Source of the DNA: Methanobacteriota archaeon
GTDB lineage: Archaea > Thermoplasmatota > Thermoplasmata > SG8-5
Direction: 5' to 3'
Length of the DNA stretch: 64,000 bases
Assembly: GCA_013791785.1 (NCBI GenBank)
Contig: VMTD01000061.1
Coordinates: forward strand, 898 to 64,897
In this document: piece by piece, positions 6,634 through 55,976 of the stretch
Layout of the letters: each line of letters opens with the position of its first letter
How positions within the stretch are numbered: position 1 is the first letter of the stretch
Notes under the pieces: generated by a model
Database searches by the model: none
The model's input: only the letters and a program-made list of their open reading frames with translations
What the model was told of the DNA's origin: nothing
Made by a program: the position numbers and the translations under genes

Positions 6634-6644
6634 GGGATTTTCAA

Positions 6645-6700
6645 GAGATTGGCCGGTGCCGAAGCCCTGGGGGTGGCCTGGCGCTATTCCAGACGATAGT
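6645..6700. repeat. Family D repeat fragment (ttggccggtgccgaagccctgggg...).
   Basis: It matches 7893-7918 (ttggccggtgccggagccctgggg). Confidence 0.55.
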
Positions 6701-7706: not shown

Positions 7707-7719
7707 TCCTATTTATAGG

Positions 7720-8874: not shown

Positions 8875-8961
8875 CTGGTCCTGTGTTATGGGTTCACTTC
8901 CGTTCTTTGGAATGGCGGGTGATTATAAATATGTTCGTGAAACCCGGAAAATCAGGACACA

Positions 8962-8970
8962 ATTTCAGGG
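8962..8970 (+). promoter_or_regulatory. TATA-box-like element (attataaac) upstream of gap.
   Basis: Its position is about 50 nt upstream of the GAPDH ATG at 9022. Confidence 0.3.
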
Positions 8971-9021
8971 CGGATGCATACAGATTATAAACATGAAATC
9001 CTATTCCGGGCCGGTGAGCAA

Positions 9022-10065
9022 ATGCCTGTGAAAGTTGCAATCAACGGATACGGAACAATCGGAAAGCGCGTGGCCGATGCCGTGCGCCAGCAGGATGACA
9101 TGGAGATTGTCGGGGTAGTCAAGAGACGCCCCACGTTCGAGGCCACGGATGCAATGCGGGAAGGTTACCCCTTCTACGCCGCTTCAAAGGAGAACATTCC
9201 GGACCTGGAGAATGCCGGAATAAAGGTTGAAGGCGTTCTCACTGACCTACTGGAGATGGCAGACATAGTGATTGACTGCACTCCCAAGAAGGCAGATTAC
9301 AAAACGCTCTATGAGAAACACAACGTCAAGGCCATCTGGCAGGGCGGCGAGAAACACGCACTTACAGGATTATCTTTCAATGCAATGGCGAATTACGAAG
9401 AGGCAATAGGCAAGCAGTTCGCCAGAGTGGTCTCCTGCAACACCACGGGGCTGTGCCGGACTCTTTACCCGATCAACGAGAAAATCGGCATCGAGAACGT
9501 CGAAGCCGTCATGATCCGCAGGGCTGCGGACCCCTGGGACACCAAGACCGGGCCGATAAATGCCATAGAGCCGGAAGTGAAAGTGCCCAGCCACCACGGA
9601 CCGGACGTTAAGACGGTCATGAAGGGCCTGAAAATCCAGACCATGGCCGTGAAAGTTCCAACCACTCTGATGCATCTGCACACAGTGGTTGTCACGCTGA
9701 AAAAGGAAGTGAGCAGCCAGGAAGTTCTGGACATCTGGGCAGCGACCCCCAGAGTACTGTTCTTCAGCACTGCCAACGGCATAAAATCCACCGCCCAGGT
9801 AATGGAGTGGGCCAAGGACACGGGCAGAAAGAGAGGCGATTTGTTTGAAATCGCAGTCTGGAAGGACGGCGTTCATGCAGTGAATGACCGGGACGAGAAC
9901 GTGAAGGATTTCGGCAGGATGCTGTACTACTCCCAGGCGATACATCAGGAGAGCGACGTGATACCGGAAAACATAGACTGCATAAGGGCCATGTGCGAAC
10001 TGGAAACAGACAAGCTGAAATCCATAAAGAAAACTGACGATGCAATGGGCATGCTGAAGGTGTGA
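9022..10065 (+). CDS. gap: Glyceraldehyde-3-phosphate dehydrogenase, archaeal type II.
   Basis: N-terminus [18 protein letters not shown], the catalytic SCNTTGL motif and a length of about 347 aa. The start was trimmed from 8974 to the conserved Met. Confidence 0.9.
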
Positions 10066-10646
10066 ACATGATTACCGAGAAAGACGTTGAAAAGCTCTTC
10101 GGAGCGTATCTGAAACAGATAAAGAACAAGAAGATGCGCGACATGACCGTGAAGGTATGGGTCGACGGATGCAAGCAGGGCGGCTGGACCACTGTCAAGC
10201 AACTGGAGAAGATGCCATACACTCTTCTGACAGAGACTTACGGCATCAATTTCATAGAGCACACCATCGCCGTAACGAGAGGCGCAATGGAACTCGCCAA
10301 GGCCCAGCTGGACACCTACAGGAAAATGCCTTACAAGATAGACATGGACCGATTGATTGTCGGCGGTCTGCTGCATGACATAGGAAAGCTGGTGGAGACA
10401 GAGCCGGACGGAAAGGGCGGGTACAGGAAGAGCCATGCAGGAAAATGCCTCCGGCATCCGGTGTCCGGAACCGTCATGGTCAAGATGGCCGGATTTTCTG
10501 ACGAGATAGCCAACACCATAGCATGCCACGCCAAGGAGGGCGAGGGCGCACCCCAGTGCATCGAGACAGTGTTCATCCATCAGGCTGATTTCGCTACGTT
10601 CAACCCGCTGGTCATGATGAACGGCGGAAAGCTGATACAGGAGTAA
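10062..10646 (+). CDS. HD-domain phosphohydrolase.
   Basis: It has an H...HD...D motif (GLLHDIGK). Its start overlaps the gap stop as ATGA, and its TAA stop lies inside the palindromic element. Confidence 0.7.
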
Positions 10647-10698
10647 ACTACCAGCCCCTAAAGTGGCTGGCGTTTGTTGCCAGGGCTGGAAGTTTACT
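10643..10698. repeat. Family A palindromic element, copy 2 (56 bp): gtaaactaccagcccctaaagtggctggcgtttgttgccagggctggaagtttac.
   Basis: The arms GTAAACTACCAGCCC and GGGCTGGAAGTTTAC are inverted repeats. The left GTAAAC contains the TAA stop of the HD gene on the plus strand. The right GTTTAC contains, on the minus strand, the TAA stop of the methyltransferase gene. Confidence 0.85.
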
Positions 10699-11407
10699 TC
10701 TCCTGTTTGAGGCGCTTCACGACCTTCACGGCCCGGCTGAAAACGCCGGCCAGGGTGTGGAATTCGTTCGACGAGAGCCCGGCCCTTGCCACTATCTTGC
10801 GGAACATTACCTTGGTCTTCTCTTTCTTGTAGGGCTGGTATGTTATCTCTTCCAGAAGGTCGGCAAAAAGTTTGTTCATGACCTTCTTTTCCTTGGAACC
10901 GGCAAACGTTTTCACTCTGGTTGATTTTGGGGGGCTGAACAGTTCATAGAATAGGATTGTCGCGGCATGGGAGAGGTTCAGAATCGGATTAATCTCGTGA
11001 GTGGGAATTGTCACCAGAATGTCGCAATTCTTCAGCTCTTCATTGAGCAGGCCCCTGTCCTCGCGACCAAATAATAAACCAACTCGGCCGGTTTTACTGG
11101 CCATGAAAGTTGCCAGCTGCTTCGGGGTTATCGGTTCCCTGAGAAACTTTCTGTTGCTGTCTGTGGGCTTTCCGGTACTTCCGACAATGATGTCCGCCAT
11201 ATCCAGTGCTTCACTGAGCTCATTGACGACCATTGCATTCTCCAGGATGTAGCGGCCGTGTTTGGAATACCGGTAAGCATCGTCCCCCAGTTCGCACGGG
11301 TTGACCAGCACAAGGTGTCCCAGGTCAAAATTGCTCATGGCCCTGGCTACCGAGCCTATGTTGCCAGGAAATTTCGGCTCCATCAGGATGACTATGTATT
11401 CGGGCAT
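10694..11407 (-). CDS. SpoU/TrmH-family RNA 2'-O-methyltransferase (TrmJ-like).
   Basis: SPOUT motifs are present (GNIGSVARAM and LLFGREDRGL...HAATILFYE). Confidence 0.8.
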   Translation of the reverse strand: MPEYIVILMEPKFPGNIGSVARAMSNFDLGHLVLVNPCELGDDAYRYSKHGRYILENAMVVNELSEALDMADIIVGSTGKPTDSNRKFLREPITPKQLATFMASKTGRVGLLFGREDRGLLNEELKNCDILVTIPTHEINPILNLSHAATILFYELFSPPKSTRVKTFAGSKEKKVMNKLFADLLEEITYQPYKKEKTKVMFRKIVARAGLSSNEFHTLAGVFSRAVKVVKRLKQEK

Positions 11408-11455
11408 CGCCTCCCCATAGAATCGGATTTATAAATATAAGCCCTTCACCGGCCA

Positions 11456-12253
11456 ATGAGATATGCCATAAAGTTCGCCTACGATGGCTCGAAGTTCGAC
11501 GGATATGCAAGACAGCCAGGGAAAAGAACCGTGGAAGGGGACATCATAAAAGCCATGAAGTTCCTTGGCATGATAGAGAGCGTCGGAAAGAGCAGACTGG
11601 AAGGCGCAAGCAGGACCGACCGAGGCGTCAGCGCCGCGGGCAACGTGATAGCACTGGACACGGAATTCAGGGGCGATGCAATACTCAAGGCGCTGAATTC
11701 CAACCTGGAGGGGATTGTCTGCCACGGCATCGCAGACGTCCCGGACGATTTCAACCCGAGACATGCCAGACAGAGATGGTATCGTTACTTTTTTCAAGCC
11801 GACGGGCTGCCGCCGACAGATGAGCTGGAAAAGGCCGCGGCATACTTCACCGGGAAACACGATTTCAGGGTATTTTCCAAAAAGGACGCAGACAAGAACA
11901 CCGTACTGGCTATAGATTCCATAGAATTCTCGAAGCGCGGCAAATTTATAATAGTCGACATCAGGGCCCACAGATTCCTCTGGGAGCTGGTCAGGCGGCT
12001 GCTCTCGGCAATACTGGAAACGGCGAACGACAGGCTCGGCCCGGACATGGCAGAGGAGATGCTGGCAGGGATCAGGCATTACCCGAGGGGGCTGAAACCG
12101 CTGCCGCCGGAATTCCTGGTGCTGATGGACGTTATTTATGATTTTGAGTTTGAACATCCTGTTGCGGCCCCGGATTATTTCGGGGATGAGGCCAGATACC
12201 TGAAACAGCGGTCCGATGTAATGAAAGAGATATCGGAAATTATCCGCGTTTAA
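11456..12253 (+). CDS. truA: tRNA pseudouridine(38-40) synthase TruA.
   Basis: N-terminus MRYAIKFAYDGSKFDGYARQPG with the catalytic motif RTDRGVSAAGNV. Confidence 0.85.
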   Translation: MRYAIKFAYDGSKFDGYARQPGKRTVEGDIIKAMKFLGMIESVGKSRLEGASRTDRGVSAAGNVIALDTEFRGDAILKALNSNLEGIVCHGIADVPDDFNPRHARQRWYRYFFQADGLPPTDELEKAAAYFTGKHDFRVFSKKDADKNTVLAIDSIEFSKRGKFIIVDIRAHRFLWELVRRLLSAILETANDRLGPDMAEEMLAGIRHYPRGLKPLPPEFLVLMDVIYDFEFEHPVAAPDYFGDEARYLKQRSDVMKEISEIIRV

Positions 12254-27496: not shown

Positions 27497-27943
27497 ATGG
27501 CCACAGCCAAGATAATTGTCTTCAACGCGGAGAAGTGCAAGGGATGCGGAGAATGCGAAAAAGCTTGCTCCAACGTTCATCACAAGAACGACCTCGGTGG
27601 AGAATACTCCGCCATCCGGATAATTAAATCTGACTCAGGCTTCCAAATGACAGACTGCAATATGTGCGGCCTGTGCATAGACATGTGCCCGGTCCTGGCC
27701 ATAAGGCGATTGGGAAGCGGGACGGTCGTGCTTGACAAGAAGAAATGCGTGGGCTGCCAGGCCTGTGTGGGTTTTTGCCCGAGAGGGGTCATGAGAAAAG
27801 CTCCGAACGTCATTACGCCGTTCAAGTGCATAGCCTGCGGTGCATGCGTCCGTGCATGCCCGGAAGGCGCGTTGGAGTTGAAAGAAGTTGATTTGGCTGA
27901 AATTGAAGAAACAGTCTATTCTTATCAGGGGGTCTGCGAATGA
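27497..27943 (+). CDS. Poly-ferredoxin with multiple 4Fe-4S cluster motifs.
   Basis: Four CxxCxxCxxxCP-type motifs. It overlaps the AOR start as ATGA. Confidence 0.85.
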   Translation: MATAKIIVFNAEKCKGCGECEKACSNVHHKNDLGGEYSAIRIIKSDSGFQMTDCNMCGLCIDMCPVLAIRRLGSGTVVLDKKKCVGCQACVGFCPRGVMRKAPNVITPFKCIACGACVRACPEGALELKEVDLAEIEETVYSYQGVCE

Positions 27944-30297
27944 GCGGCGGAAAATGTGTGAGCAAGGACATTACAACCATCGGCGACAGGAACAAGGGAT
28001 TCCAGACTGGAAACACAAAACACGAGTGGGACCTTGAGAAGCTCAAAGCCAGCCGCAAAATTATTGCCGAGTTCAAGTATGAAAAGCGGGCCGTGGAAAA
28101 GGGATATGCCAACCGCACGCTGTTCGTTGACCTCACCAAGAACGAGATTCGCGAGGTTCCGGTTACCGAGGATATGAAGCAGAAGTTCACCGGCGGCCGC
28201 GGTTTCGGACTCAAGCTGCTCTGGGATACCATAAACCCGTCAACACGCTGGGACAGCGACGAGAATGGTCTTGTTCTCACGGCCGGGCCAATGTGTGGCT
28301 CGACTCAATACCCGGGCTTTGGAAAGACGCTTAGCTTGACAGTTTCTCCCTCAACATACATTATTTGCGACTCCAATGCCGGCGGTTATTTCGCGCCGTA
28401 CATGAAATTCGCCGGGTTTGATGCTATCCAGGTGCATGGAAAAGCGTCAGAAGACGTGGTCATCGTAATTGATGGCGAAGAGGGAAAAGTAACGATTGAG
28501 ACCGCGCCGGATGTGGAAGTTAATTCACACATGGTTGCAGAACAGCTTACCCATTTCTATGCCATTGAGGATTCCGAGGCAGCCAGACAGCGCGTCGCAA
28601 TCGTATCCGCGGGCAAGGGCGCCGAGCATTCTTACTGGGGCTGTCTGAACATATCGTTTTACGATGTACGAAGAAAGGTAGCCAGACTTAAACAGCACGG
28701 CCGCGGCGGCCTGGGAACTGTCCTGAGGAACAAGAAAGTGAAAGCGATTGTTGCCAGGACCGAGCACTTCGATGGACTGACCAATCACCCTGTGAACGCA
28801 GACAAGGTTGCAGAAATTGGAGCCAATTATCACAAGGAGATGCGAGACCTGGACAAAGAGCAGTGCAATATGCGAACTGTTGGAACTGGCCACCTTGTGG
28901 AAATCATGGATGCTTATGATTTACTGCCTACTGAAAATTACAGGTTCGGCAGCCATCCGAAGGCAAACAAAATTTTCTCTCCGCATTTCTACAAACTCTG
29001 GACCCAGGTTATTCCGGACGGATGCTGGTACGGCTGCACAATGGCCTGCGCCAAGGCATCGGACGGATTCCAGCTAATGACAGGACCGTACAAGGGCCAA
29101 AAAGTTACTGTTGATGGCCCGGAGTATGAAACACTTGGGTGCGCTTCAAACATGAGCATGTGGGACCCGCTGTACGTCCTTGAGTTCAACTTCTATTGCG
29201 ACACATACGGCCTGGACACGATTTCCACCGGAACAGCAATAGCATTCTACATGGAGATGTATGAATACGGCATTCTCAACAAAGAGAGATGCGGCGGCCT
29301 GGAACTGTGCTTCGGCAACAATGATGCAGTAATGCAATTCATCCACCGCCTGGCAGCCGGAGACGATGACGAATTCATCCAGGTTGCTGGAAAGGGCGCA
29401 AGAAGAGTCAAGGACTGGCTGAAAACCAAGAACTGGGGCGATGCCCAGTTGATTGAAGACACCGGCATGGAGAGCAAGGGCCTTGAGTATTCCGAGTACG
29501 TTACAAAAGAATCCCTGGCAATGCAGGGCGGTTACGGTCTAACGCTCAAGGGACCGCAGCATGACGAGGCCTGGCTAATCTTCATGGACATGGTGAACAA
29601 TCAGATTCCGACTTTCGCCGATAAAGCGGAAGCGCTCTGGTACTTCCCCATGTGGAGAACCTGGTTCGGGCTTCAGGGCCTGTGCAAGCTCCCGTGGAAT
29701 GATGTCGAGCCTTCGGATAACGCGCAAACAAGTGAGCCTGCAAAAGTTCCTGGCCACGTGCAGAATTATGTGGAAATCTTCAACGCGATTACCGGACAGA
29801 ACGTTGACAAGAACGGTCTAATATCCCAGAGCGAGCGCGCATACAACTGGCAGCGCGCAATGGCTGCCTGGCTTGGGCGCGGACGCAGAAAGGACGACTG
29901 GATACCCTACCGTTCAATGGGGCCGGTAACAGACATGGAATATATCTCCAGAAAGGAAAGATATGACAAGTACCTGGCCGAGGTTGCAGGAATACCCGCA
30001 GCAGAAGTCGAGGAAATGACCTTGCCCAGGAAGATGGAAGCTCTGTACAATTTCAGGCAAAATCAATATCAGAAACTTGCGGACGCAGTTTATTACCGCA
30101 GGGGCTGGACTCCGAACGGCGTGCCGACGCCACAGAAGATGAGGGGCATCGGCTTCGGCGACGAAACAGAGATGCTGGAAATGCTGCAAAAGAAGATTGA
30201 CGAGGATGAAGCAGCAGGACTCAATGTCTGGGGCGGGGAATACGGCCCGGGCGAGGAGCCGCCGACAAAGGACAGGAAGTACTGGGAGAAGTGGTAA
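27940..30297 (+). CDS. Aldehyde:ferredoxin oxidoreductase family protein (tungsten/molybdopterin-dependent) with N- and C-terminal extensions.
   Basis: AOR N-domain motif (ANRTLFVDLTKNEIREV) begins at about residue 55. The protein is 785 aa, against about 600-650 aa for characterised AOR, FOR and GAPOR. Confidence 0.8.
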   Translation: MSGGKCVSKDITTIGDRNKGFQTGNTKHEWDLEKLKASRKIIAEFKYEKRAVEKGYANRTLFVDLTKNEIREVPVTEDMKQKFTGGRGFGLKLLWDTINPSTRWDSDENGLVLTAGPMCGSTQYPGFGKTLSLTVSPSTYIICDSNAGGYFAPYMKFAGFDAIQVHGKASEDVVIVIDGEEGKVTIETAPDVEVNSHMVAEQLTHFYAIEDSEAARQRVAIVSAGKGAEHSYWGCLNISFYDVRRKVARLKQHGRGGLGTVLRNKKVKAIVARTEHFDGLTNHPVNADKVAEIGANYHKEMRDLDKEQCNMRTVGTGHLVEIMDAYDLLPTENYRFGSHPKANKIFSPHFYKLWTQVIPDGCWYGCTMACAKASDGFQLMTGPYKGQKVTVDGPEYETLGCASNMSMWDPLYVLEFNFYCDTYGLDTISTGTAIAFYMEMYEYGILNKERCGGLELCFGNNDAVMQFIHRLAAGDDDEFIQVAGKGARRVKDWLKTKNWGDAQLIEDTGMESKGLEYSEYVTKESLAMQGGYGLTLKGPQHDEAWLIFMDMVNNQIPTFADKAEALWYFPMWRTWFGLQGLCKLPWNDVEPSDNAQTSEPAKVPGHVQNYVEIFNAITGQNVDKNGLISQSERAYNWQRAMAAWLGRGRRKDDWIPYRSMGPVTDMEYISRKERYDKYLAEVAGIPAAEVEEMTLPRKMEALYNFRQNQYQKLADAVYYRRGWTPNGVPTPQKMRGIGFGDETEMLEMLQKKIDEDEAAGLNVWGGEYGPGEEPPTKDRKYWEKW

Positions 30298-30339
30298 TCA
30301 TCGGCATGCCAAATCCTTCGGATATTGGCAATTAAGAAT

Positions 30340-30372
30340 GCCAGGCTGAAGCCTGGCATCTTTACTATTTTT
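30340..30372 (+). terminator. Hairpin gccaggc-tgaa-gcctggc followed by a T-rich tract, downstream of AOR.
   Basis: Direct reading. A 7-bp stem is followed by atctttactattttt. Confidence 0.5.
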
Positions 30373-30470
30373 GAAATATATCCTACCATCGTAACCCAAT
30401 ACTTTCGCCCACCTCTAGGAATTGTTTATAACCGTCTGAGTGTTTTACCTGATTGAAGGAATGGTAATAC

Positions 30471-31481
30471 ATGGCTAAGAACAAAAAACTACCAGACAAC
30501 CAGATAACGGTTTACCAAACTCCAGATGGTGAAATTAATATTGAAGTGATGTACGTCAATGAAAATCTCTGGATGCCTCAAAAAAGAATGGCGGAGCTTT
30601 TTGGTGTAGAACGAAGTGTTGTTACCAAGCACCTGAAGAATATCTTTTCGGATAATGAGTTACAGAAAGATTCAGTGTGTGCAAATTTTGCACATACTGC
30701 CGAGGATGGCAAGGAATATCTGACTAATTTTTATTCTCTTGAAGCCATCATTGCCGTAGGTTACCGGGTAAATTCGGAACGTGGCATTCAGTTTCGACAA
30801 TGGGCGATTTCAATTCTCCAGCAATATATTCACAAAGGATTTGCGATTGACAATGACCGATTTAAACACGGCTCCCGTTTCAGCACGAGATATTTCGATG
30901 ACTTGCTGGAGGAGATACGTGACATCCGCTCCAGTGAAAGGATGCTGTATCAGAAAATAACTGATATTTATGCTACATCTATTGATTATTCTCTAAAAAC
31001 TGAGGACACAAAACAGTTTTTTGCGACAGTACAGAATAAACTGCACTTTGCCATTACTGGGCAGACCGCTGCAGAAATAATATCTGCACGGGCCAAGAGC
31101 GACAAGCCAAACATGGGATTGACATCATGGCGAAAAGGGCATGGGGGTAAAATCATGCCAGGTGATGTTATCATAGCAAAAAACTATCTGGATAAACAGG
31201 AGCTTGATCATTTAAACCGCATTGTAACCTTGTATCTTGATTATGCGGAGCTGCAAGCGGTTCGTAATAAACCCATGTACATGAAAGATTGGACTGAAAA
31301 ACTGAACGCTTTTCTGAAGTTCAGCGAATATGAAATACTTACCAATGCAGGGACAATCAGCCATGAAGTTGCTCTTGCCCTGGCTAACAAAGAATATGAA
31401 ACATTCAAGAAAATTCAGGATACAAATTATCTCTCGGATTTTGATAAAGAGGTTAAAAGGGTTAGAGAGTGTAAGAAATGA
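30471..31481 (+). CDS. RhuM-family protein (Virulence_RhuM domain), a common marker of mobile and defence islands.
   Basis: N-terminal region ITVYQTPDGEINIEV...NLWMPQKRMAELFGVERSVVTKHLKNIF matches the RhuM/Fic-associated DNA-binding family. The coding region is AT-rich. Confidence 0.65.
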   Translation: MAKNKKLPDNQITVYQTPDGEINIEVMYVNENLWMPQKRMAELFGVERSVVTKHLKNIFSDNELQKDSVCANFAHTAEDGKEYLTNFYSLEAIIAVGYRVNSERGIQFRQWAISILQQYIHKGFAIDNDRFKHGSRFSTRYFDDLLEEIRDIRSSERMLYQKITDIYATSIDYSLKTEDTKQFFATVQNKLHFAITGQTAAEIISARAKSDKPNMGLTSWRKGHGGKIMPGDVIIAKNYLDKQELDHLNRIVTLYLDYAELQAVRNKPMYMKDWTEKLNAFLKFSEYEILTNAGTISHEVALALANKEYETFKKIQDTNYLSDFDKEVKRVRECKK

Positions 31482-31984
31482 TTGAGACTGAAAGACTGTA
31501 CCTGAGACTGATGAAAGAATCAGACACTGACGATATGCTGGGTATATTCAATGAACCCAAATTAATGAAAGCATTTGGTTTTGAGTCCTTTTCCAGAGAG
31601 CAAATGATACGATGGGTGAGTAGAAATCTCCAGTATCAAGAAAAGTATGGCTACGGTTTATTTTCTGTCATTCTGAAAAGCAATGGAAAATTAATTGGAG
31701 ATTGCGGTCTGGAATGCACGACTTTTGAAGGAAATGAATGTATTGAGATTGGGTATGATTTTTCCAGTGTTTATTGGAATCAGGGCTATGCGACAGAAGC
31801 TGCTTCAGCGGTCAGGGATTTTTCCATCAATGACCTGAACATTGATTCCAGGCTTTTGTGTAGTTTTATCCGAAAAATAAATGCCCCATCAATTAGGGTA
31901 TCTCAGAAAATTGGCATGAAAAAGACAAAAGAATACTCTCAAAATGGAATTGAATATTATCTCTATCAGTTTCCACCGCCCTGA
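31478..31984 (+). CDS. GNAT N-acetyltransferase (RimJ/RimL-like).
   Basis: It overlaps the RhuM-family stop. GNAT motifs are present and the region is AT-rich. Confidence 0.7.
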   Translation: MIETERLYLRLMKESDTDDMLGIFNEPKLMKAFGFESFSREQMIRWVSRNLQYQEKYGYGLFSVILKSNGKLIGDCGLECTTFEGNECIEIGYDFSSVYWNQGYATEAASAVRDFSINDLNIDSRLLCSFIRKINAPSIRVSQKIGMKKTKEYSQNGIEYYLYQFPPP

Positions 31985-32055
31985 ATGATGCTATTTGTCA
32001 CAAAACCCCAAACCATATCTAACACAACAATATTCCCTTCCATAAAGGTGATATC

Positions 32056-32448
32056 ATGGACAGCAGAGTCAAGAACATGTTCGCAGACGAGAAAATAAAA
32101 TTCGGAGTACTGGCCGAAGCATTTCCGGGCATGAAGGAATACTTCGAGGGAACGAAACCCGGCAGAATAAACCGGTATGACAACGGCGTCATGAGCATTG
32201 TCATCAACGGCCAGGGCAAGGAAAAGCCCTCGACGTTCGGGTACCTACCAGTGGGAAGATTCGTGTTCAACGTGGGAGGCAACCGGGAGACCATGCATTT
32301 CCTCCACGGCGAGATTGACTGGGGCTTTGGAAAGAACCCGACTGTTAGACCAAAGCAATATGACATTCTGGTGATTCCCGCAGGCGAGGATTTAATCCTG
32401 AACGTTAAGAAACCGACGCTCTACGTTTGCGATTATCTGAAACAATGA
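32056..32448 (+). CDS. Small cupin-like hypothetical protein (130 aa).
   Basis: Short beta-rich protein with HFLHGEIDWGF...LVIPAGEDL. Its stop overlaps the radical-SAM gene start as ATGA. Confidence 0.4.
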   Translation: MDSRVKNMFADEKIKFGVLAEAFPGMKEYFEGTKPGRINRYDNGVMSIVINGQGKEKPSTFGYLPVGRFVFNVGGNRETMHFLHGEIDWGFGKNPTVRPKQYDILVIPAGEDLILNVKKPTLYVCDYLKQ

Positions 32449-33317
32449 AAAAGATTGTTTTGGCTTCCCACCTGGCTCATTTCGAACTGAAGAGAAAGCT
32501 CACAGGAATTAAATACTTCGCTGAAATCGACATCACCGACAATTGCAATCTCAGGTGCGGCCATTGCTATCACTTTCACGGCAAGAACGTTTTCGAGAAA
32601 AAAGAATTGCCCCTGGGGGTTTGGAAAAAGCGGTTCAGAACGCTTCACAGAGGGGGAATTCGATGCGTTCTGCTGGTTGGCGGCGAACCCGCCCTCAGGG
32701 CAGACGTGCTAATGCTGGCCCACAATATTTTTCCGTTTGTATATGTGATTACCAACGGTACAGTTTTCATCCCGAAGAAGTTCAATCATCTTCTTTTCGT
32801 GTCGCTGGACGGCATGCGGGAGACCAATGATATAATTCGCGGACGCGACACATTCGACAGAGTTTTAAAGAATTATTCAGGAGATAAGCGCGTCGCCATA
32901 AACATGACCATAACCATGGACAATTACAGGGAACTGGAGAACGTTGTTCGCCTTTCCAAAAAACACGGGTTCAGAGGCGTGGTGTGCAATATCTGCGCAT
33001 CGGGAACAGACGTAAAAGTACCCATGCACATCAAGGCCGATGAGAGAAAAACAGTCATGAAAGAGCTGAGGCGCGTTAAAGAAAAATATCCGAAGCAATT
33101 TTTGCTCAGCGATGCCATGCTCAGGTGGTATGAAAAAGCGGACCATCGCGGCAGATGCTACTGGGGCGATGATGTACTGCATTTTGATGTGAACTGGAAA
33201 AAAAGGCGGTGTTTCGGCTCCAATGCGGACTGCTCGAACTGCGGATGCCTGGCAGGCTCTTTCCAGAACCCGTTTTTAATGGCTTTTACCGCCAAGGAGT
33301 TCAGGAAATTGGTTTGA
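32445..33317 (+). CDS. Radical SAM enzyme with a C-terminal Cys-rich auxiliary-cluster (SPASM/twitch-like) domain.
   Basis: CNLRCGHCYHF is a CxxxCxxC motif. A SLDGMRETNDIIRG motif is present. The C-terminal cysteines are C-x17-C-x6-C-x2-C-x-C. The start was placed at the ATGA overlap (MKKIVLASH). Confidence 0.7.
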   Translation: MKKIVLASHLAHFELKRKLTGIKYFAEIDITDNCNLRCGHCYHFHGKNVFEKKELPLGVWKKRFRTLHRGGIRCVLLVGGEPALRADVLMLAHNIFPFVYVITNGTVFIPKKFNHLLFVSLDGMRETNDIIRGRDTFDRVLKNYSGDKRVAINMTITMDNYRELENVVRLSKKHGFRGVVCNICASGTDVKVPMHIKADERKTVMKELRRVKEKYPKQFLLSDAMLRWYEKADHRGRCYWGDDVLHFDVNWKKRRCFGSNADCSNCGCLAGSFQNPFLMAFTAKEFRKLV

Positions 33318-33351
33318 AAATGCTTATAAGGTCCATCATCTTTCCAGAATT

Positions 33352-34122
33352 ATGGTGTTCCCGAACTATCCGAACAAACAGTCCGAAAAGGCTTTGTTCA
33401 GTCCGTCTGATTTCATGGAATATGCAAAGAAGAGAGGCCAATACCCGACGATTGAACCGCCCGATGGACTGATCCTTTGTTATGACAGGAATCTGCTTGC
33501 GTTCATCCTGGCCAACCACAAGACAACTGTAGCGAGGATTTTCGGAGAGGTTCATGTTCTGGATGAAACTGAGGGGAAGATTGCCATTGCCAGCGTTCAC
33601 GGAATTGGCGGGCCATGCGCTGTCACCACCATGGAGGAGAAGATCGCGTTCGGGATCAACAAGTTCATTTCCATTGGCCTAGCTGGCTCCCTCCAGAAAA
33701 GCATTGGGATCGGCGATATCGTTGTATGCGACAGGGCGATAAGGGACGAGGGCGTTTCCCACCATTATCTGGAGAGTTCAAAGTATGCCCATGCCTCGGA
33801 GGAGATGACGAAACGCATCAAGAGTTCGTTGGACAAGTTGGGTATCGAATATGTTACAGGCACCAGCTGGACCACAGATGCCGTGTACCGGGAAACGACC
33901 GCCGAGGTTTCCCAGTATCAGAAAGATGGCGTGGCAACCGTGGAAATGGAGGCCGCCGCGCTCTTCGCGGTGGCCCAATACCGCAAGGTCCAGATTGGTT
34001 CGATACTGACTATAAGCGATTCGCTGGCTGACATGAAATGGCAGCCCGAGTTCCATTCCGAAAATGCGAAAACGGGTTTGGAAAATCTTTTCAAGGCAGC
34101 AGTCAACGCCTTGTTGATGTGA
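33352..34122 (+). CDS. PNP/UDP-family nucleoside phosphorylase or nucleosidase (MTA/5'-deoxyadenosine nucleosidase-like).
   Basis: Motifs GIGGPCAVTTMEE, DIVVCDRAIRDEG, VEMEAAALFAVA and ILTISD are typical of PF01048. Confidence 0.65.
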   Translation: MVFPNYPNKQSEKALFSPSDFMEYAKKRGQYPTIEPPDGLILCYDRNLLAFILANHKTTVARIFGEVHVLDETEGKIAIASVHGIGGPCAVTTMEEKIAFGINKFISIGLAGSLQKSIGIGDIVVCDRAIRDEGVSHHYLESSKYAHASEEMTKRIKSSLDKLGIEYVTGTSWTTDAVYRETTAEVSQYQKDGVATVEMEAAALFAVAQYRKVQIGSILTISDSLADMKWQPEFHSENAKTGLENLFKAAVNALLM

Positions 34123-34162
34123 AGAATTAAGTATCTTAAAAAGAATTCCTTTTTGCGATACC

Positions 34163-34504
34163 ATGGACAAAATAATCGGCTTCTGCGGACTTGTGTGCAC
34201 GGAATGCCCGACCTACCTGGCCACGGTGAATGATGATGAGGCGCTGAGAAAAGCCACAGCCGCCAAATGGTCGGAGATGTACAAATCGGACATCAAACCG
34301 GAAAACATCAAATGCAACGGCTGCACCACGCCGGGCATCAAGTTCCACCACTGCACCGAGTGCGAGATGCGGATTTGCGGCATTGCCAAGGGCGTGAAGA
34401 ACTGTGGGCGGTGCGGGGATTACCCGTGCGCCAAGATCGAGGCATTCTTGAAGTACGTGCCCGATGCGAAGGCAGTACTGGATGAGGAGAATCGGGCACG
34501 CTGA
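34163..34504 (+). CDS. Small Cys-rich protein, DUF3795-like.
   Basis: GFCGLVCTECPTY...CNGC...CTEC...CGRCGDYPC pattern. Confidence 0.5.
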   Translation: MDKIIGFCGLVCTECPTYLATVNDDEALRKATAAKWSEMYKSDIKPENIKCNGCTTPGIKFHHCTECEMRICGIAKGVKNCGRCGDYPCAKIEAFLKYVPDAKAVLDEENRAR

Positions 34505-34514
34505 TGCATTTGGT

Positions 34515-34566
34515 TGGCTGGAACCAACCGCTTGGCCAGGATGTGCGCCGATTTAAGCTAACCCCG
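34515..34566. repeat. Family D repeat copy (...gtgcgccgatttaagctaaccccgc).
   Basis: It matches 7924-7950 (gtgcgccggtttaagctaaccccgc) and shares the ccgcttgg prefix with 7874-7881. Confidence 0.7.
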
Positions 34567-34571
34567 CTCCA

Positions 34572-35336
34572 CTATTTCGGTGGACAATATCTCCCGATGA
34601 TGAACCAAGTCGGATATTGTGAGTACATGCCCATCACAAAATGGAAGTTGGTTTTTTCCAGCATTTTAATGAAATACTTATCTTGAAGCTTTTCCCAGAG
34701 AATTTCCGGGGTTTGATACCTCGGCCCCCAGCTCCTGTAAGATTCGAATAGTTCCCAGTCCTCGCACTGCATGTTATGCTCGCTTTCTCCGCAACACTGG
34801 CATTTGAATTTATACTTGAAAATGTGTGGTATTTTGGTAACTTTTGGAATGATTTCACCGTCGAGATTCATGGTGGCGGACCATCCGTTGTTCTCGTATA
34901 TTTCCAAATTGTCGGTTTTGATGAAATCCAGCAATTCTGTCGGTTTGATTAATCCAAGAGATGTTTTGTCTGTTTCATAGGCGTCTTTCAATGCTTGGAT
35001 GGAATTCGAAACATGAGGCAGTACAATCTTGTTCCTGGCATTCCAGTCAACCTTTGGTTTGGTTAAACTGCGGTCAATTATCGTAATTGAGTCTGGCCTT
35101 ACCTTGTGGCTCTCCTTTCTGCCGAGCTTGTCAGCGTCTTTCTGGCACATGACCTCTATGACATCAAATTTGGATATTTTGTTCTCCCCGATGAAATGTC
35201 GCATGTCAATCGGATAGAGCCTTATCCATTCCCCTTCATCGGTAATTCCTGCGGTACAGGCCACATCCCCATGTTTCAGGCTTGGTTCAGGATATGCCTT
35301 GGTGATAATGGTAATTCTTTTCTTTTCCCACGTCAA
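34572..35336 (-). CDS. Uncharacterised protein with a C-terminal CxC...C zinc ribbon. It is probably translationally coupled to the upstream gene through a TTG start.
   Basis: Non-repetitive sequence throughout. A TTG start overlapping the upstream TGA (TTGA) gives MTWEKKRITIITKAYPEP... The longer ORF running to 35654 overlaps the DUF488 gene and is rejected. The region is AT-rich. Confidence 0.45.
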   Translation of the reverse strand: MTWEKKRITIITKAYPEPSLKHGDVACTAGITDEGEWIRLYPIDMRHFIGENKISKFDVIEVMCQKDADKLGRKESHKVRPDSITIIDRSLTKPKVDWNARNKIVLPHVSNSIQALKDAYETDKTSLGLIKPTELLDFIKTDNLEIYENNGWSATMNLDGEIIPKVTKIPHIFKYKFKCQCCGESEHNMQCEDWELFESYRSWGPRYQTPEILWEKLQDKYFIKMLEKTNFHFVMGMYSQYPTWFIIGRYCPPK

Positions 35337-36166
35337 ACTATTACAACTCCTTTCTCTCTCCTTCCCAACTCTTCCGCCAGCACTGTCCTGTGGCACATCT
35401 CCGGATCCTTCTCGAAACACATCAATGCAATCTTCTTTTCTCTCCCCAGTCCAAGAAGCATATCCAATTCTTTCTCTTTCTTTGAAATGAATTTTCTGTA
35501 ATGTCTGAAAAGAGCATCGTAATCTTCCTTGGTTTCCAGCGTCTTCCTCAACTCGCTCGGAATGCCAACTTCCGGTAGACCGATGTATTCTACCCCCATC
35601 TTCCCGCAAAGGATGTTGAGAGATTTTCCGGTGAATCCGTATTTCATGCTCCACGGATTGTTTCGCACATCTACCAGAACCTGGATTTTTTCATCAATTA
35701 ATTTCATCATGAATTCATCGATGGACAATCCTTCATATCCAATTGTTATGATTCCAATTTCGTCCCGACTATAAGCCATTTTTTTCTTGATTTCACTGAA
35801 TATGGTATATTTTGGGTATTTTTCATAGGTGAATTCCACCATATCATTGTCATCCATTGATTTCGTTTCATCGAAAAAAAAGTCGACCATATTCATTGTA
35901 TCCTCTTGTAAATCAACGGTACCATTGATGAATTTAATGTTTGTGTCATCTGTTTCAATAATACCTTCTCTTTCCAGCATTTCCAGGTCATGAAACAATT
36001 CGAATGAATATGGACCGTACTTATAAGGAACGAAACCGTAAAATTTGAATTTCGTCAATGATTTATCCTTGCTCATCAGGAAGAATACCTTGGAAAGTTT
36101 CATTTTTGAGCATTGCCCGGATTGTTTTAAAAAATATACCAGGCATTTTTGTCTTGTATTCATCAT
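35333..36166 (-). CDS. Fusion protein: N-terminal Panacea (DUF4065/SocA-like antitoxin) domain plus C-terminal DUF488 domain.
   Basis: N-terminus KMKLSKVFFLMSK...YGFVPYKYGPYSFELFHDLEML is the Panacea pattern. C-terminus ITIGYEGLSIDEFMMKLIDEKIQVLVDVR...GVEYIGLPEVG...ALMCFEKDPEMCHRTVL is the DUF488 pattern. Confidence 0.55.
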   Translation of the reverse strand: MMNTRQKCLVYFLKQSGQCSKMKLSKVFFLMSKDKSLTKFKFYGFVPYKYGPYSFELFHDLEMLEREGIIETDDTNIKFINGTVDLQEDTMNMVDFFFDETKSMDDNDMVEFTYEKYPKYTIFSEIKKKMAYSRDEIGIITIGYEGLSIDEFMMKLIDEKIQVLVDVRNNPWSMKYGFTGKSLNILCGKMGVEYIGLPEVGIPSELRKTLETKEDYDALFRHYRKFISKKEKELDMLLGLGREKKIALMCFEKDPEMCHRTVLAEELGRREKGVVIV

Positions 36167-36445
36167 ATAAACGTGGTAAATCTCATCAAGGTATAAATAC
36201 CCTTATCGTGGGGGGTGGTGAAAGTGTTTGAATTGAACAATAAGTCTCAGACTGAGAGTTGCCAACCACACAACAATGCGAAGCTACAAAGAAAAGCCTC
36301 CTGTGCAAGATCCGTGTAATGGATTTCGCCCAGCAAGCGAGGGCCGGGCGAGTACCTGCCACCCCGCCCTCACGGGCGAGGCTTCATGATAGCAGTAATA
36401 ACATTGTCCATATCTGAAGGGGTGAATTCGCACTCGATTGAAAAA

Positions 36446-36476
36446 TGATTAAAAACCCCGGCCTCACAGCCGGGGC
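36446..36476 (-). terminator. Intrinsic-terminator-like hairpin (ccccggc ... gccgggg) plus T-run on the minus strand, downstream of the carboxylase operon.
   Basis: The minus-strand reading is gcatgccccggctgtgaggccggggttttt. Confidence 0.55.
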
Positions 36477-36507
36477 ATGCTGTTGGGATACAGTCTTTGT
36501 TTGTAAA

Positions 36508-38115
36508 TCACATCCGATACAAACTGAACCCGGCGTCCGTTATCGGCGCATTGAGCGACGCCGATATCCCCAGTGCCAGCACCAGCCGCGTTTGCGTCGG
36601 ATCGATTATGCCGTCATCCCATATCCTTGCGCTTGAGTAATATGGATTTCCTTCCTGCTCATACTTTTCCAGAATGGGTTTTTTCAGATTATCGACGTCC
36701 TCCTGGGTCATCTCCACGCCCTTGCGGAAGAGCTGGTCCCGCTTTACTGTCGAGAGGACATTCGCAGCCTGCTCGCCACCCATGACACTTATTCTCGCAT
36801 TGGGCCACATCCAGAGCTGACGCGGCCCGTAAGCGCGGCCGCACATACCGTAATTTCCTGCGCCGAAGCTTCCGCCGATTAGCACTGTGAACTTCGGCAC
36901 CTGGGCATTGGAGACGGCCGTAACCATCTTGGCCCCGTCCTTGGCAATTCCCTTTTCCTCGTACTCGCGACCAATCATGAACCCGGTTATGTTCTGAATG
37001 AAGACCAACGGTATCTTCCGTTGGCAGCAGAGTTCGATGAAATGCGTTCCCTTGAGGGCGCTTTCCGAGAATAGTACGCCGTTATTTGCCAGTATGCCCA
37101 CCGGGTATCCCATGATGTGAGCAAAACCGGTAACCAGCGTTTGGCCGTAAAGCTCCTTGAACTCATGGAATTTGCTGCCGTCGACTATCCTGGCTATAAC
37201 CTCGCGGACTTCGAAAGGCCGCTTCGAGTCCTTGGAAATGATGCCGTAGATTTCTTCAATTGGATATTTCGGTTCCTCCGGCTTCCTGGTCTTCATGTGG
37301 GCCTTGGGCTGGCGATTGAGGTTCTCCAGGATGTTGCGGCCTACATGGAGCGCTTCCTCGTCATTGTGAGTGTAATGGTCGGAAACCCCCGATTTCCGGC
37401 AGTGTACGTCCGCACCGCCCAGGTCCTCTGCGCTCACTATTTCGCCTGTCGCCGCCTTAACCAGCGGGGGGCCGCCCAGGAAGATTGTGGCATTGCCTTT
37501 GACCATGACGGTTTCATCGGACATCGCGGGAACGTACGCGCCCCCGGCTGTGCAGGAGCCCATGACCAGCGCTATCTGGGGTATCTTCATGGCGCTCATC
37601 CTCGCTTGATTGTAAAATATCCTGCCGAAGTGTTCGCGATCCGGAAAGACTTCATCCTGGAGCGGAAGGAACGCCCCGCCTGAATCCACCAGATAGACGC
37701 ATGGCAAGTTATTCTCCATGGCAATCTCCTGGGCCCGGAGGTGCTTCTTCACGGTCATGGGGTAATAAGTTCCGCCTTTCACGGTGGCATCATTGGCTAT
37801 CATCATTACCTCGCGTCCGTGAACGACGCCGATGCCGGTGACTATGCTGGCGCAGGGCGCCTGGTTCTCATACATTCCGACGGCGGCAAGCGGATTCAGT
37901 TCCAAAAACGGAGTATCGGGATCGCAGATGGCGTCTATGCGTTCCCTGGCCAGCATCTTTCCCCGGGACTTGTGGAGCTTTACCTGTTCCTCGCCGCCCC
38001 CGGCCTTGGCCCACTCTATCTTTTCCCTCAGATTGGCTATGAGCTTGAGGTAATGTTCCTTGTTGTCCTTGAATTCCTGGCTGTTGGGGTCTATCTTGCT
38101 CTCTATTGCGTCCAT
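36508..38115 (-). CDS. Acyl-CoA carboxylase carboxyltransferase subunit (propionyl-CoA carboxylase beta / methylmalonyl-CoA decarboxylase alpha family).
   Basis: 535 aa with duplicated crotonase-like carboxyltransferase domains. Confidence 0.9.
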
Positions 38116-44787: not shown

Positions 44788-45780
44788 TTGGACAAATGCA
44801 TGGACTGCGATGGCAGAACAGTCAAACTGTACGTCAACACCGAAATATTTGGCATTAGAATGATAGCCATGATTGTTACAGGATTCGTTCTATTAATCAT
44901 CTGGTCGCTCCTGGACTTGTTCGATAACATGTTCCTGGATGTTTTCATCGGCGCACTTATTCTTTCGGCTATTATATTCGGGGGAACGTTCTATATTTAC
45001 AACAAGCAGAAACCCATACTCGATGCGGCCCGGGAGAGGGGACGCAAGTTATACTCGGAACACATTCGGGAGTATGATGCGGGTGAGATAATCATCGATC
45101 ATTGCATGCCGCTCCCGGCAACCCAGTATCCCTGGGGCATCAGAAACATCCACAGACTGCGCATTGCCCTTGTTGTGACCATTATCCTTACCCCAATGCC
45201 GATGTTACTCGGTTTGTTTGTCTTGAGATCCGCGACTTCATCCGGAACCCTGGCCATCTCTTTCCTGACGACTGCTTTCATCGCGGTTGCCATATTCATA
45301 CATATCGAATACAGCCCGGCAAAAAAGCATTATGAACTTATCAAAGCCCTGAACCTCAAACCCGACGAGGTCAAAAAAAGCTTCAAATCCCTCACAGTGA
45401 AAAGCAATATTTACGGAAATTTCGAGCTCAAATATGACTCTGATTACGGGTACCATCTCAGAATGGCCCTGGACTCGGATATTGCAAAATCCGTTCCGGA
45501 AATGGACATCTGGACAAGGCCGAATTTTATTTCCAAATTCAGGAATAAGACCGCGAATCAGGCAATCAGATTTCAATGGATGAATTCGTCTCAGCTCGAA
45601 GCAATCAAGAGCCTCAAACAGATCAAGGTAGAGAATGTTTTTCATAACAAAATGCTATTTGCCGCCCTGGACAACAAGGCATTGTACTCCGAGACAGGGG
45701 ATATCGTTCTGGTGGTGCGCCTGCTCAGGGAGACAAAGAGCAATCTGGAGTCTGAATACGCGGACCGGCTGAACAAATGA
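44788..45780 (+). CDS. Hypothetical membrane protein (AT-richer than its neighbours).
   Basis: N-terminal CxxC, several TM helices and no recognisable domain. Confidence 0.35.
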   Translation: MDKCMDCDGRTVKLYVNTEIFGIRMIAMIVTGFVLLIIWSLLDLFDNMFLDVFIGALILSAIIFGGTFYIYNKQKPILDAARERGRKLYSEHIREYDAGEIIIDHCMPLPATQYPWGIRNIHRLRIALVVTIILTPMPMLLGLFVLRSATSSGTLAISFLTTAFIAVAIFIHIEYSPAKKHYELIKALNLKPDEVKKSFKSLTVKSNIYGNFELKYDSDYGYHLRMALDSDIAKSVPEMDIWTRPNFISKFRNKTANQAIRFQWMNSSQLEAIKSLKQIKVENVFHNKMLFAALDNKALYSETGDIVLVVRLLRETKSNLESEYADRLNK

Positions 45781-55196: not shown

Positions 55197-55976
55197 ATGG
55201 AGAGTGCGTTTAGGAAGAAGGCCTTGGCGGTCTGGGTAATCCTCATTATTGTGTTCGGGGGATATTGCACTTACCTGGCCAACATAGAACCTGAGAGAGA
55301 AACGGTTATCTTCATTACGATGACAAGGTATGACATTCAATCGATGAATATTTCGGATGCCTGCGATGCCTTCAATCAAACCTCTTTTCTGGACAATTAT
55401 TCGGTCGGAAATTTTACTGGAACAGATTCCCGTAGATTAAAAATAATTCCTGTTGATAATGAATATATTGAAATTCAATTCTGCAGGCAAGAAGAGATTG
55501 ACCAAACATATTTTTTGGCGATTGGATATGCAGATTTACGTCCATTAATCGGGAATGAGAATTACAATGAATTGGGGACGACATTACAAACAGAATTGGC
55601 TCATGTCCTTGAATATGTAGGCATACAGGTAAGTCCCGAGGAACTGAACGTAATAAGTTACAATCGAGTTACTCCGGATTTTATTTCGCTCACTGCTTTT
55701 TTTGGGCTATTGGCATCGGTTGTGACATATTCATTTTTATTATTTTTCAAGAAGGGGCTCATCCTGCGAAATCTTGGGGGGAGTTTCGTAGATCATCCGA
55801 GACTGCTCATAGGGTTGGCTGGAATGTTCCTTTCCGCATTCCTGGGCCTATGGGAACTCTGGTGGATGGTAGGCGTTGAAACTTTTTCCAGTATTGGCTA
55901 TTTGGCATTATATATTCTACCATTCATCGGAGGACTATACCTGATTAATCGGGAGATTCCGAAGCTAACTCAGTAG
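55197..55976 (+). CDS. Hypothetical membrane protein (AT-rich).
   Basis: N-terminal and C-terminal TM helices and no recognisable domain. Confidence 0.35.
   Translation: MESAFRKKALAVWVILIIVFGGYCTYLANIEPERETVIFITMTRYDIQSMNISDACDAFNQTSFLDNYSVGNFTGTDSRRLKIIPVDNEYIEIQFCRQEEIDQTYFLAIGYADLRPLIGNENYNELGTTLQTELAHVLEYVGIQVSPEELNVISYNRVTPDFISLTAFFGLLASVVTYSFLLFFKKGLILRNLGGSFVDHPRLLIGLAGMFLSAFLGLWELWWMVGVETFSSIGYLALYILPFIGGLYLINREIPKLTQ

Follow-up and report, generated by a model that had tools for sequence, protein, structure and literature searches.

The region from 30300 to 36450 of the DNA analysed here (hereafter the window: the whole stretch of 64,000 nucleotides taken from contig VMTD01000061.1, which belongs to an archaeal metagenome-assembled genome, MAG, of the Thermoplasmatota) is a gap between two convergent operons. 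Its content is best explained by a native core of four genes, encoding a cupin, a radical SAM protein, a PNP_UDP_1 protein and a DUF3795 protein, with one small foreign AT-rich cassette on each side, the two cassettes having entered in separate events; we give this reading a probability of roughly 0.78. The left cassette (cassette A) carries genes for a RhuM-family protein, which PADLOC lists as the phage-defence candidate (PDC) S05, and a GNAT acetyltransferase, and the right one (cassette C) carries the gene pair PDC-M19A and PDC-M19B, another PADLOC candidate for phage defence. The evidence comes from the base composition of the region, the identity of its genes, their patchy distribution among relatives, the boundaries of the units and their relative ages. 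A first-pass annotation of the same DNA had described the region as one horizontally acquired island bounded by terminator-like hairpins. The foreign origin of the two AT-rich stretches and their patchy distribution hold up, and the notion of one island and one event does not, with a native middle of 2.5 kb and cassettes that occur separately. The region is an ordinary kind of genome mosaic, which overturns no current idea and is of value as a clean worked example: island callers relying on GC content would merge two independent tiny cassettes around native genes into one.

Composition and gene content of the gap

The gap is flanked by orf138-orf220-ferredoxin-AOR on the plus strand and by the acyl-CoA carboxylase operon ECH-BC-BCCP-carboxyltransferase (the last gene abbreviated CT) on the minus strand. 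It contains the following features.

30471-31481, plus strand: RhuM-family protein, 336 amino acids (Pfam Virulence_RhuM, E 2e-105; PADLOC PDC-S05, E 1e-141)
31478-31984, plus strand: GNAT (Acetyltransf_3) protein, 168 amino acids (Pfam E 1e-27), its start overlapping the RhuM stop (ATGA)
32056-32448, plus strand: Ppnp-like cupin, 130 amino acids (Pfam Ppnp, E 3e-7), with a GC content at third codon positions (GC3) of 0.65
32445-33317, plus strand: radical SAM protein with a Cys-rich C-terminus, 290 amino acids (Pfam Radical_SAM, E 2e-12)
33352-34122, plus strand: PNP_UDP_1 nucleoside phosphorylase or nucleosidase, 256 amino acids (Pfam E 2e-40; GC3 0.64)
34163-34504, plus strand: DUF3795 Cys-rich protein, 113 amino acids (Pfam E 6e-18)
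34572-35336, minus strand: PDC-M19B, 254 amino acids, TTG start, tandem OB-fold (DuOB) and putative zinc site C..C..H..C (PADLOC E 3e-53)
35333-36166, minus strand: PDC-M19A, 277 amino acids, Panacea/DarG-C-like N-terminus and DUF488 C-terminus (Pfam DUF488, E 9e-28; PADLOC E 2e-80)
36167-36240, minus strand: conserved stretch of cassette C ahead of M19A, containing a TATA-like box TATTTATA at 36192-36199, 26-33 nt before the M19A ATG

The window outside this region has a mean GC content of 0.529, below the value of about 57% that had been estimated for the flanks, with gene-level values of 0.532 +/- 0.028 for GC and 0.644 +/- 0.066 for GC3. The fall to about 40% GC that the first-pass annotation had seen in two stretches is confirmed by 400-bp sliding windows, which give 0.37-0.42 across 30.4-32.0 kb and 0.33-0.46 across 34.6-36.2 kb; windows below 0.43 make up 38% of those inside the region and 3% of those outside. 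By segment, GC is 0.390 at 30360-32020 and 0.406 at 34541-36240, with 0.498 in the middle (32021-34540), and a cumulative-deviation change-point analysis places the low-GC stretches at 30310-32102 and 34572-36295. The composition changes abruptly at gene borders. The RhuM gene (GC 0.399, z -4.8; GC3 0.40), the GNAT gene (GC 0.379, z -5.5; GC3 0.37) and an open reading frame (ORF) spanning the minus-strand genes (GC 0.438, z -3.4) all depart from the background. The cupin, radical SAM, PNP_UDP_1 and DUF3795 genes show background-like synonymous codon usage and GC3 values of 0.58-0.75. With regard to the features of a classical island, atypical composition is found in both AT-rich segments and not in 32021-34540, and absence from the same site in relatives applies to the AT-rich cassettes (loci L033, L005 and L083) and fails for the block as a whole, the middle genes being partly conserved. 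Genes of the mobile or defence type had been recognised from the letters alone and are present, with strong matches for RhuM, GNAT and DUF488 and a weak one for Panacea (E 0.005).

The layouts of related loci were drawn from tblastn maps of loci fetched with AOR, together with the contexts of M19A and RhuM homologs, and all of the comparison genomes are MAGs or metagenome contigs. Gene orders are given below from left to right.

L033 (UBA147): AOR, DUF3795, then CT in the opposing direction, with a DUF3795-CT spacing of only 320 bp
L005 (SG8-5) and L083: AOR, 325-amino-acid protein, DUF3795, 313-amino-acid membrane protein, then the opposing CT-BCCP-BC-ECH
L004: AOR, 251-amino-acid protein, cupin-radical SAM, DUF1684, 995-amino-acid laminin-G protein
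L003: AOR, six genes (methylase-like, radical SAM, NUDIX, methyltransferase, TIM-barrel), cupin-radical SAM
L171 and L172: ECH-BC-BCCP-CT followed in the same direction by M19A-M19B, then, opposing, a 257-amino-acid UPF0102-like protein, DUF3795, a 1037-amino-acid AAA_16/TPR protein and AOR
L176: AOR, RhuM, radical SAM, with neither GNAT nor cupin (a 2.3-kb contig that stops short of the M19 position)

A test proposed earlier was whether AOR and the carboxylase operon are neighbours in genomes lacking the AT-rich genes, and they are: in UBA147 DUF3795 lies between them, and in SG8-5 and a JGI contig DUF3795 has one further gene on either side. RhuM is common to the window and L176 and is missing from L171, while the DUF488/DuOB pair is common to the window and L171 and absent from the UBA147 and SG8-5 loci. 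Judged from these gene orders, the two AT-rich cassettes occur independently and have separate histories, and the gap is a variable cargo site between conserved operons. DUF3795 orthologues always lie between AOR and CT (68% identity in L033, 64% in L005 and L083, 76% in L171). In L003 and L004, cupin orthologues of 70-75% identity adjoin the radical SAM gene on the downstream side of AOR, and the radical SAM protein itself is 73-74% identical in L003 and L004 and 80% in L176. By conservation and position, DUF3795 is a conserved resident, or anchor gene, of the gap and the cupin-radical SAM pair an old neighbour of AOR. No orthologue of the PNP_UDP_1 gene was seen in the loci of the relatives.

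The cupin-radical SAM pair stands beside AOR in several Thermoplasmatota (L003 17969-19224; L004 13229-14496), to which the window adds PNP_UDP_1 (32056-34122), and the three genes together look like an uncharacterised nucleoside-related pathway. The radical SAM protein was considered as a viperin or as having some other role in defence, and both ideas were rejected: it scores 33.8 bits against a cut-off of 180 for the NCBIfam model viperin_w_prok and has a native composition, and its PADLOC match to pVip (E 6e-10) covers the generic core only (residues 29-143).

In the L171 gap, the UPF0102-like, nuclease-like protein of 257 amino acids (7231-8004, minus strand) is accompanied by the STAND-like AAA_16/TPR protein of 1037 amino acids (8654-11767, minus strand), so that genes of the defence type seem to accumulate at this site in more than one lineage. 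Defence islets located in integration hotspots flanked by core genes are known from bacterial pangenomes. The present site resembles them in being a fixed gap between conserved operons with AT-rich cargo that varies by relative and includes many defence candidates. It differs from them in its archaeal host, in the small size of its cassettes (about 1.7 kb), in the lack of a recombinase and in the native, metabolic-looking genes that lie among the cargo. A variable site without a recombinase, set between convergent operons, is thereby documented in an uncultured archaeal lineage.

The PDC-M19 pair

M19A and M19B are co-oriented, with M19A as the first gene and a 4-nt overlap at 35333-35336. Both are matched over their full length by the PADLOC models for PDC-M19 (PDLC04505 over residues 2-271 of M19A; PDLC04508 over residues 4-254 of M19B), and the other loci where the pair was found have the same arrangement of neighbouring, overlapping genes on one strand. 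Both proteins also have PHROG matches, that of M19B being to PHROG 25907 (E 3e-40), while M19B has no match in Pfam. The 277-residue start of M19A is backed by conservation. The pair and its 4-nt overlap recur in four other archaeal contexts, with identities for the two proteins of 81% and 94% in L171-L173, 65% and 43% in L174, and 50% and 74% in L175; for at least 20 further homolog pairs, the longest contig has an equal length in the M19A and M19B match lists, an indirect sign that these too are co-located. The neighbourhoods of the pair in L174 and L175 are unrelated, and the GC content of the M19 cassette is 8-13 points below that of the rest of each locus.

Nucleotide homology with L171 begins some 75 nt ahead of the M19A ATG and stops exactly at the M19B stop codon, with unalignable DNA on both sides, which delimits a mobile unit from 34572 to about 36240. 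The upstream stretch of about 75 nt is nearly identical in L171 and L172 and, given its TATA-like box, would represent the cassette's own putative archaeal promoter as well as its outer limit. The synonymous divergence (dS) from L171 is 0.69 for M19B and 1.04 for M19A, compared to 1.25-2.04 for CT, BC, BCCP and ECH.

The domain reading of the two proteins was worked out in this analysis. M19A has an AlphaFold 2 (AF2) model with a pLDDT of 93.6. DUF488 is present in all 48 of the aligned M19A homologs, where the motifs GYxG, DxR and C..E..CHR are invariant. The N-terminal half of the reading is less firm: the window protein scores 18.2 bits against SocA_Panacea (E 0.005), under the Pfam cut-off of 25.7, and the same family (PF13274) is matched by 12 of the 48 homologs, with a best E of 2e-5. 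The N-terminus also gives a weak match to DarG (PADLOC E 4e-6; also in NCBIfam; PDB 7yk3_B, E 0.024). Searches of the M19A fold against the PDB gave nothing at E <= 0.001, with weak flavodoxin-like or PTP-like likeness only, and the literature searched holds no function for DUF488.

M19B is modelled by AF2 (pLDDT 91.5) as two OB folds plus helices. Foldseek relates the model to the HIN domains of p204, IFI16 and AIM2-like proteins, to archaeal RPA and to Teb1 (E 3e-4 to 1e-3, probability 0.98-1.0), with TM scores of just 0.25-0.34. The likeness to the tandem-OB binders of the HIN-200 and RPA type is therefore one of two-OB architecture and not a close fold match, and M19B differs from them by a helical insert and by a Cys/His site. 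Of the residues of this site, C179 and C182 are nearly invariant and H187 and C191 are invariant, which suggests that the four bind zinc. The Pfam family DuOB (PF22557) is matched by 11 of 46 M19B homologs.

The named M19 homologs are mostly archaeal and come from Thermoplasmata, Methanoculleus, Methanosaeta, Methanofastidiosia and Nanoarchaeia. Distant relatives of M19B, at 27-30% identity, are found in the immunity region of temperate Gordonia phages; others are carried by bacterial plasmids (21 matching records, 10 of the 21 typed conjugative) and by the Sulfolobus plasmid pSOG2, which is likewise typed conjugative. Some of these distant relatives adjoin DUF488 genes. Scans of IMG/VR with the single M19B sequence and with its alignment gave no confirmed match.

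The neighbours of two of these distant relatives may be described separately. In Gordonia phage Nymphadora (L178, 1530-3334) the partner of the DuOB protein is an HTH_31 protein annotated as immunity repressor, and in pSOG2 (L179, 2498-3858) it is a 168-residue protein beside an integrase. The DuOB module seems to occur with more than one kind of partner. The phage immunity repressor was tried as a homolog of M19A and rejected (BLASTP E 4.0, with HTH_31 as its only domain).

A defence function of M19 in its host may be proposed. The tandem-OB and zinc protein M19B would bind nucleic acid, either viral DNA or single-stranded DNA, and the Panacea-like domain of M19A would link this sensing to the DUF488 domain, much as toxin-antitoxin or abortive-infection pairs operate. 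Put more fully, and tentatively, PDC-M19 might be a mainly archaeal two-component immune module in which the HIN-like M19B senses invading nucleic acid and a Panacea-type adaptor relays the signal to a DUF488 enzyme domain. An even more tenuous extension of this idea makes the AOR-carboxylase gap a possible recombinase-free hotspot that exchanges ORF-sized defence genes among Thermoplasmatota lineages. At present this is a domain-level hypothesis for the PADLOC candidate PDC-M19 and for the orphan domain DUF488, and a pointer to M19 in archaeal immunity. If true, it would provide the first function for DUF488 and bring Panacea-type coupling, so far a matter of bacterial toxin-antitoxin pairs, into archaeal immunity.

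The main functional rival is a plain toxin-antitoxin role, in which cassette C would chiefly be a selfish PanAT-type addiction module that stabilises itself and does not act against viruses, M19A being the antitoxin and M19B the toxin. This is a possible reading, short of a probable one. Like PanAT, the pair forms an overlapping bicistronic operon with a Panacea-like domain in the first protein, and the N-terminus of M19A further resembles the C-terminal region of the DarG antitoxin; the presence of relatives on plasmids and temperate phages also fits such a module. Panacea antitoxins reportedly pair with many unrelated toxins (Kurata et al. 2022). Notwithstanding, the window protein does not reach the score that Pfam requires for Panacea, its Panacea-like domain is joined to a DUF488 domain whose conserved, catalytic-looking residues are not expected of a mere antitoxin, and the partner is a tandem-OB, nucleic-acid-binding type of protein that belongs to no recognised toxin family and would be an unusual toxin. 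Moreover, PADLOC lists the pair as a defence candidate, and addiction and defence roles are not mutually exclusive.

RhuM, GNAT and the history of the gap

The RhuM protein of the window is matched by the PADLOC model PDLC04851 over residues 1-333 and by PF13310 with 352 bits against a cut-off of 33.7. Its homologs in Methanoperedens, ANME-2, Methanogaster, Methanomarinus, Clostridiales and Anaerovoracaceae are 85-93% identical in amino acids, whereas the housekeeping proteins of the locus reach just 66-92% in relatives of the same lineage. In three contexts (L163, L166 and L168) the homologs lie within hsdM-hsdS-...-RhuM-hsdR operons of type I restriction-modification (R-M) systems, right before hsdR and with overlapping frames. 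One of these contexts is a Methanoperedens MAG and another is probably bacterial, since a sigma-54 activator and a histidine kinase adjoin it; the dS between these two copies is 0.16. In all of its hosts, RhuM has a GC content of 0.39-0.42. The window copy is flanked by AOR and GNAT, and there is no R-M embedding.

At the nucleotide level, RhuM is 83% identical to the R-M copies and 91% identical to the copy in L176, from 6-12 nt before the ATG to about 25 nt before the stop; the homology being confined to the ORF, the moving unit is essentially the ORF itself. Between the window and L176, the dS of RhuM (Nei-Gojobori method) is 0.39, compared to 1.75 for the end of AOR and 1.88 for the radical SAM gene, that is, about 4.5 to 5 times lower than its neighbours, and the two RhuM copies are thus far younger than the genomes that carry them. 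The alignment with L176 breaks off at 31458, 20 nt ahead of the GNAT ATG, and the last seven codons of RhuM differ, and this break just before GNAT marks GNAT as a later, separate addition. The closest relatives of GNAT are 50-55% identical, one of them from Chloroflexota, and IMG/VR scans gave no confirmed match for it.

The PDC class was defined by the embedding of its genes in R-M, BREX or DISARM loci (bioRxiv 10.1101/2024.01.29.577857), and the window protein shares with PDC-S05 both a full-length model match and close homologs in type I R-M operons, the context in which PDCs were discovered. It differs in that the window copy stands alone after AOR, translationally coupled to a GNAT gene that is absent from the nearest copy (L176); PADLOC treats S05 as a single-gene system, and R-M embedding is not needed for the call. 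A PDC-S05 gene in E. coli lowered the plating of T7 and T5 about 1000-fold and that of T4 about 10-fold (bioRxiv 10.1101/2024.09.26.614923), and S05 in archaea has been ascribed to horizontal gene transfer from bacteria (PMC12988326). The textbook example of a gene almost exclusively embedded in type I R-M loci is PrrC (bioRxiv 10.1101/2024.01.29.577857). The closest RhuM homologs resemble this arrangement in lying between hsdS and hsdR with overlapping frames, and they differ from it in having no sequence relation to PrrC, while the window copy has lost, or never had, an R-M context. By analogy with the tested gene, a defence function of RhuM in its host is plausible. As its relatives are embedded in R-M operons, RhuM may serve as a back-up to restriction, and the window copy would have to act alone, like the tested homolog; a mechanism in which RhuM guards R-M is speculation.

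In the R-M operons of L163/L164 (5784-7020) and L166 (5785-7020), a small ORF of 70-76 amino acids stands before the RhuM gene and overlaps the hsdR start, with a weak HSDR_N match in one case, which suggests that hsdR was split or invaded by the insertion of RhuM in those operons.

The gap may have been built up sequentially. The M19 cassette would be the older arrival and RhuM a recent one and the youngest cassette, with GNAT inserted behind it afterwards, an insertion that would have rewritten the last seven RhuM codons. RhuM normally resides in type I R-M operons, passes between domains as a near-bare ORF and stands alone here; a gene of this kind, normally nested in R-M loci, can evidently make such a crossing and persist by itself. 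Because no dedicated recombinase is present, entry of the cassettes by illegitimate recombination without a dedicated integrase is the likely route.

That the AT-rich genes are instead old and native, their low GC reflecting functional or expression constraints, is quite unlikely. The M19 genes do lie below host GC in every genome examined, partly tracking the host (0.32 to 0.44), and they occupy the same position in L171 and L172 with a divergence not far from that of the flanks. Common inheritance does not, however, account for a RhuM protein that is 85-93% identical across phyla and domains, with its low dS between an archaeal and a probably bacterial copy and its several-fold deficit in dS relative to adjacent genes in L176. 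Nor does it fit the distribution, in which L033, L005 and L083 have neither cassette, L171 has no RhuM, L176 has no GNAT and the M19 pair turns up in unrelated neighbourhoods in L174 and L175.

Several points weigh against the account of a native core with two separately acquired foreign cassettes. The relatedness of the two flanks conflicts across the gap when window 27940-30297 (AOR) and 36508-38115 (CT) are compared with L003-L005, L033 and L171: AOR is 78-79% identical in L003-L005 and 66-68% in L033 and L171, while CT is 84% identical in L005 and 92% in L033 and L171. With these rankings in conflict, the host phylogeny behind the presence and absence calls is not settled, and the two operons may differ in history, a recombination breakpoint lying within the gap or close to it. 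The dS of the flanks relative to L171 (1.25-2.04) is saturated, so that co-inheritance with L171 and a later transfer of M19 are inseparable. The constant GC deficit could derive in part from selection on the genes and not from recency. Local alignments of the intergenic DNA with the empty site of L033 score 20-21, within the range of shuffled sequences (mean 17-18, maximum 27-30); as no empty-site allele is close enough for its intergenic DNA to be aligned, the junctions are known to within tens of bases. Furthermore, no integrase, recombinase or transposase domain was found in the 10 proteins of 27.9-38.1 kb (8 of the island and 2 flanking), and the matches at the cassette edges in searches for direct and inverted repeats were short, at chance level and not at the junctions, with no att-like or terminal inverted repeat. 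These searches, along with PADLOC, NCBIfam and PHROG scans of the region proteins, which are also without a recombinase, and ARAGORN, which reports 0 tRNA genes in the 64 kb, agree with the first-pass annotation, where no tRNA, integrase or edge direct repeat had been seen. As for function, the tested PDC-S05 is a different homolog, assayed in E. coli, and the literature searched contains neither a defence activity nor any mention of PDC-M19.

Hairpins at the two ends of the gap

The hairpins that had been proposed as island borders both exist and are far more stable than shuffled sequences, and their association is with the flanking operons.

30338-30359, plus strand: left hairpin with a T-rich tail, 9-bp stem, -17.8 kcal/mol, z -4.4, located 41 nt past the AOR stop (30297)
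36476-36455, minus strand: right hairpin followed by T5, 9-bp stem, -18.9 kcal/mol, z -3.6, located 32 nt past the CT stop (36508)
36345-36484, minus strand: two-hairpin element of about 140 nt directly past the CT stop, of which the right hairpin is the first hairpin
8185-8322, plus strand: second copy of the element in the window
L033 12784-12921, plus strand: third copy, between DUF3795 and CT in the opposite orientation

Both hairpins are GC-rich, end in a T run and have the strand of the upstream AOR or CT gene, not that of the island genes; they are 3' elements of AOR and CT and not island borders. On the AOR side, the homology with L176 stops at 30334, just before the left hairpin; this hairpin belongs to the 3' end of the AOR operon and marks the left edge of the variable gap. 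The region has no excess of terminator-like sites over chance, with 8 found and 9.0 expected. To our knowledge, hairpins are not an established termination signal in archaea.

These assignments bear on the reading of the first-pass annotation, according to which a single island of about 6.1 kb (30300-36450), delimited by the hairpins, would have arrived in one horizontal event. The whole block does lie between two conserved operons, it is AT-rich at both ends and each end has a strong hairpin. This reading is nevertheless very improbable, as both hairpins are features of the flanking genes, the right one falling within an element that is present at the empty site of L033, and GC3 and codon usage are native in the cupin, radical SAM, PNP_UDP_1 and DUF3795 genes. 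Moreover, DUF3795 is resident in L033, L005, L083 and L171, the cupin-radical SAM pair stands beside AOR in L003 and L004, and the cargo comes apart in relatives, with RhuM lacking GNAT and cupin in L176 (whose contig ends before the M19 position) and M19 lacking RhuM in L171.

A chimera of metagenome assembly or binning, with foreign low-GC reads joined into an archaeal contig, might be suspected from the MAG source and the abrupt shifts of composition at gene borders, and is extremely unlikely, given that 7 contigs of separate data sets, one of them an independent Logan assembly (SRR9644741), have the identical arrangement, that the AOR-RhuM-radical SAM and CT-M19 junctions recur in diverged relatives from other metagenomes, and that the GNAT protein has been deposited in four MAG accessions. 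The 7 contigs were identified by an identical AOR protein and have the same neighbour genes wherever compared; the window sequence is also that of contig JAHIHF010000182.1 (MAG GCA_018899975.1), and the archaeal ribosomal proteins L24e, S28e and L7Ae are encoded near the locus. The closest further relatives of AOR in genome and metagenome scans are Thermoplasmatota MAGs with at most 79% identity, or 84% on a contig that ends within AOR.

The first hairpin of the two-hairpin element has the form CCCCGCC-TGTGA-GGGCGGGG and is followed by a T run; about 70 nt further on comes the second hairpin, CCTCGCCC-GTNA-GGGCGGGG. The copies share conserved spacer blocks, and one stem shows a compensatory change from C-G to G-C. 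A covariance model built on the element gives 127-147 bits for the copies and finds these three only in the window and 54 archaeal and RhuM- or M19-context loci (0.9 Mb). Rfam has no match to the element and, over 29.5-37.5 kb, nothing below E 0.2. Since L033 has the element without M19, it belongs to the 3' region of CT, and M19 was inserted between the element and DUF3795. Possible identities of the element are a gene for a small RNA, a terminator module and a repeat similar to a miniature inverted-repeat transposable element.

Elsewhere in the window, three further ORFs without a Pfam match have a low GC content, at 55197-55976 (plus strand; 0.41, z -4.3), 6471-6878 (plus strand; 0.47, z -2.4) and 44788-45780 (plus strand; 0.46, z -2.5), and these may be other small acquired genes.

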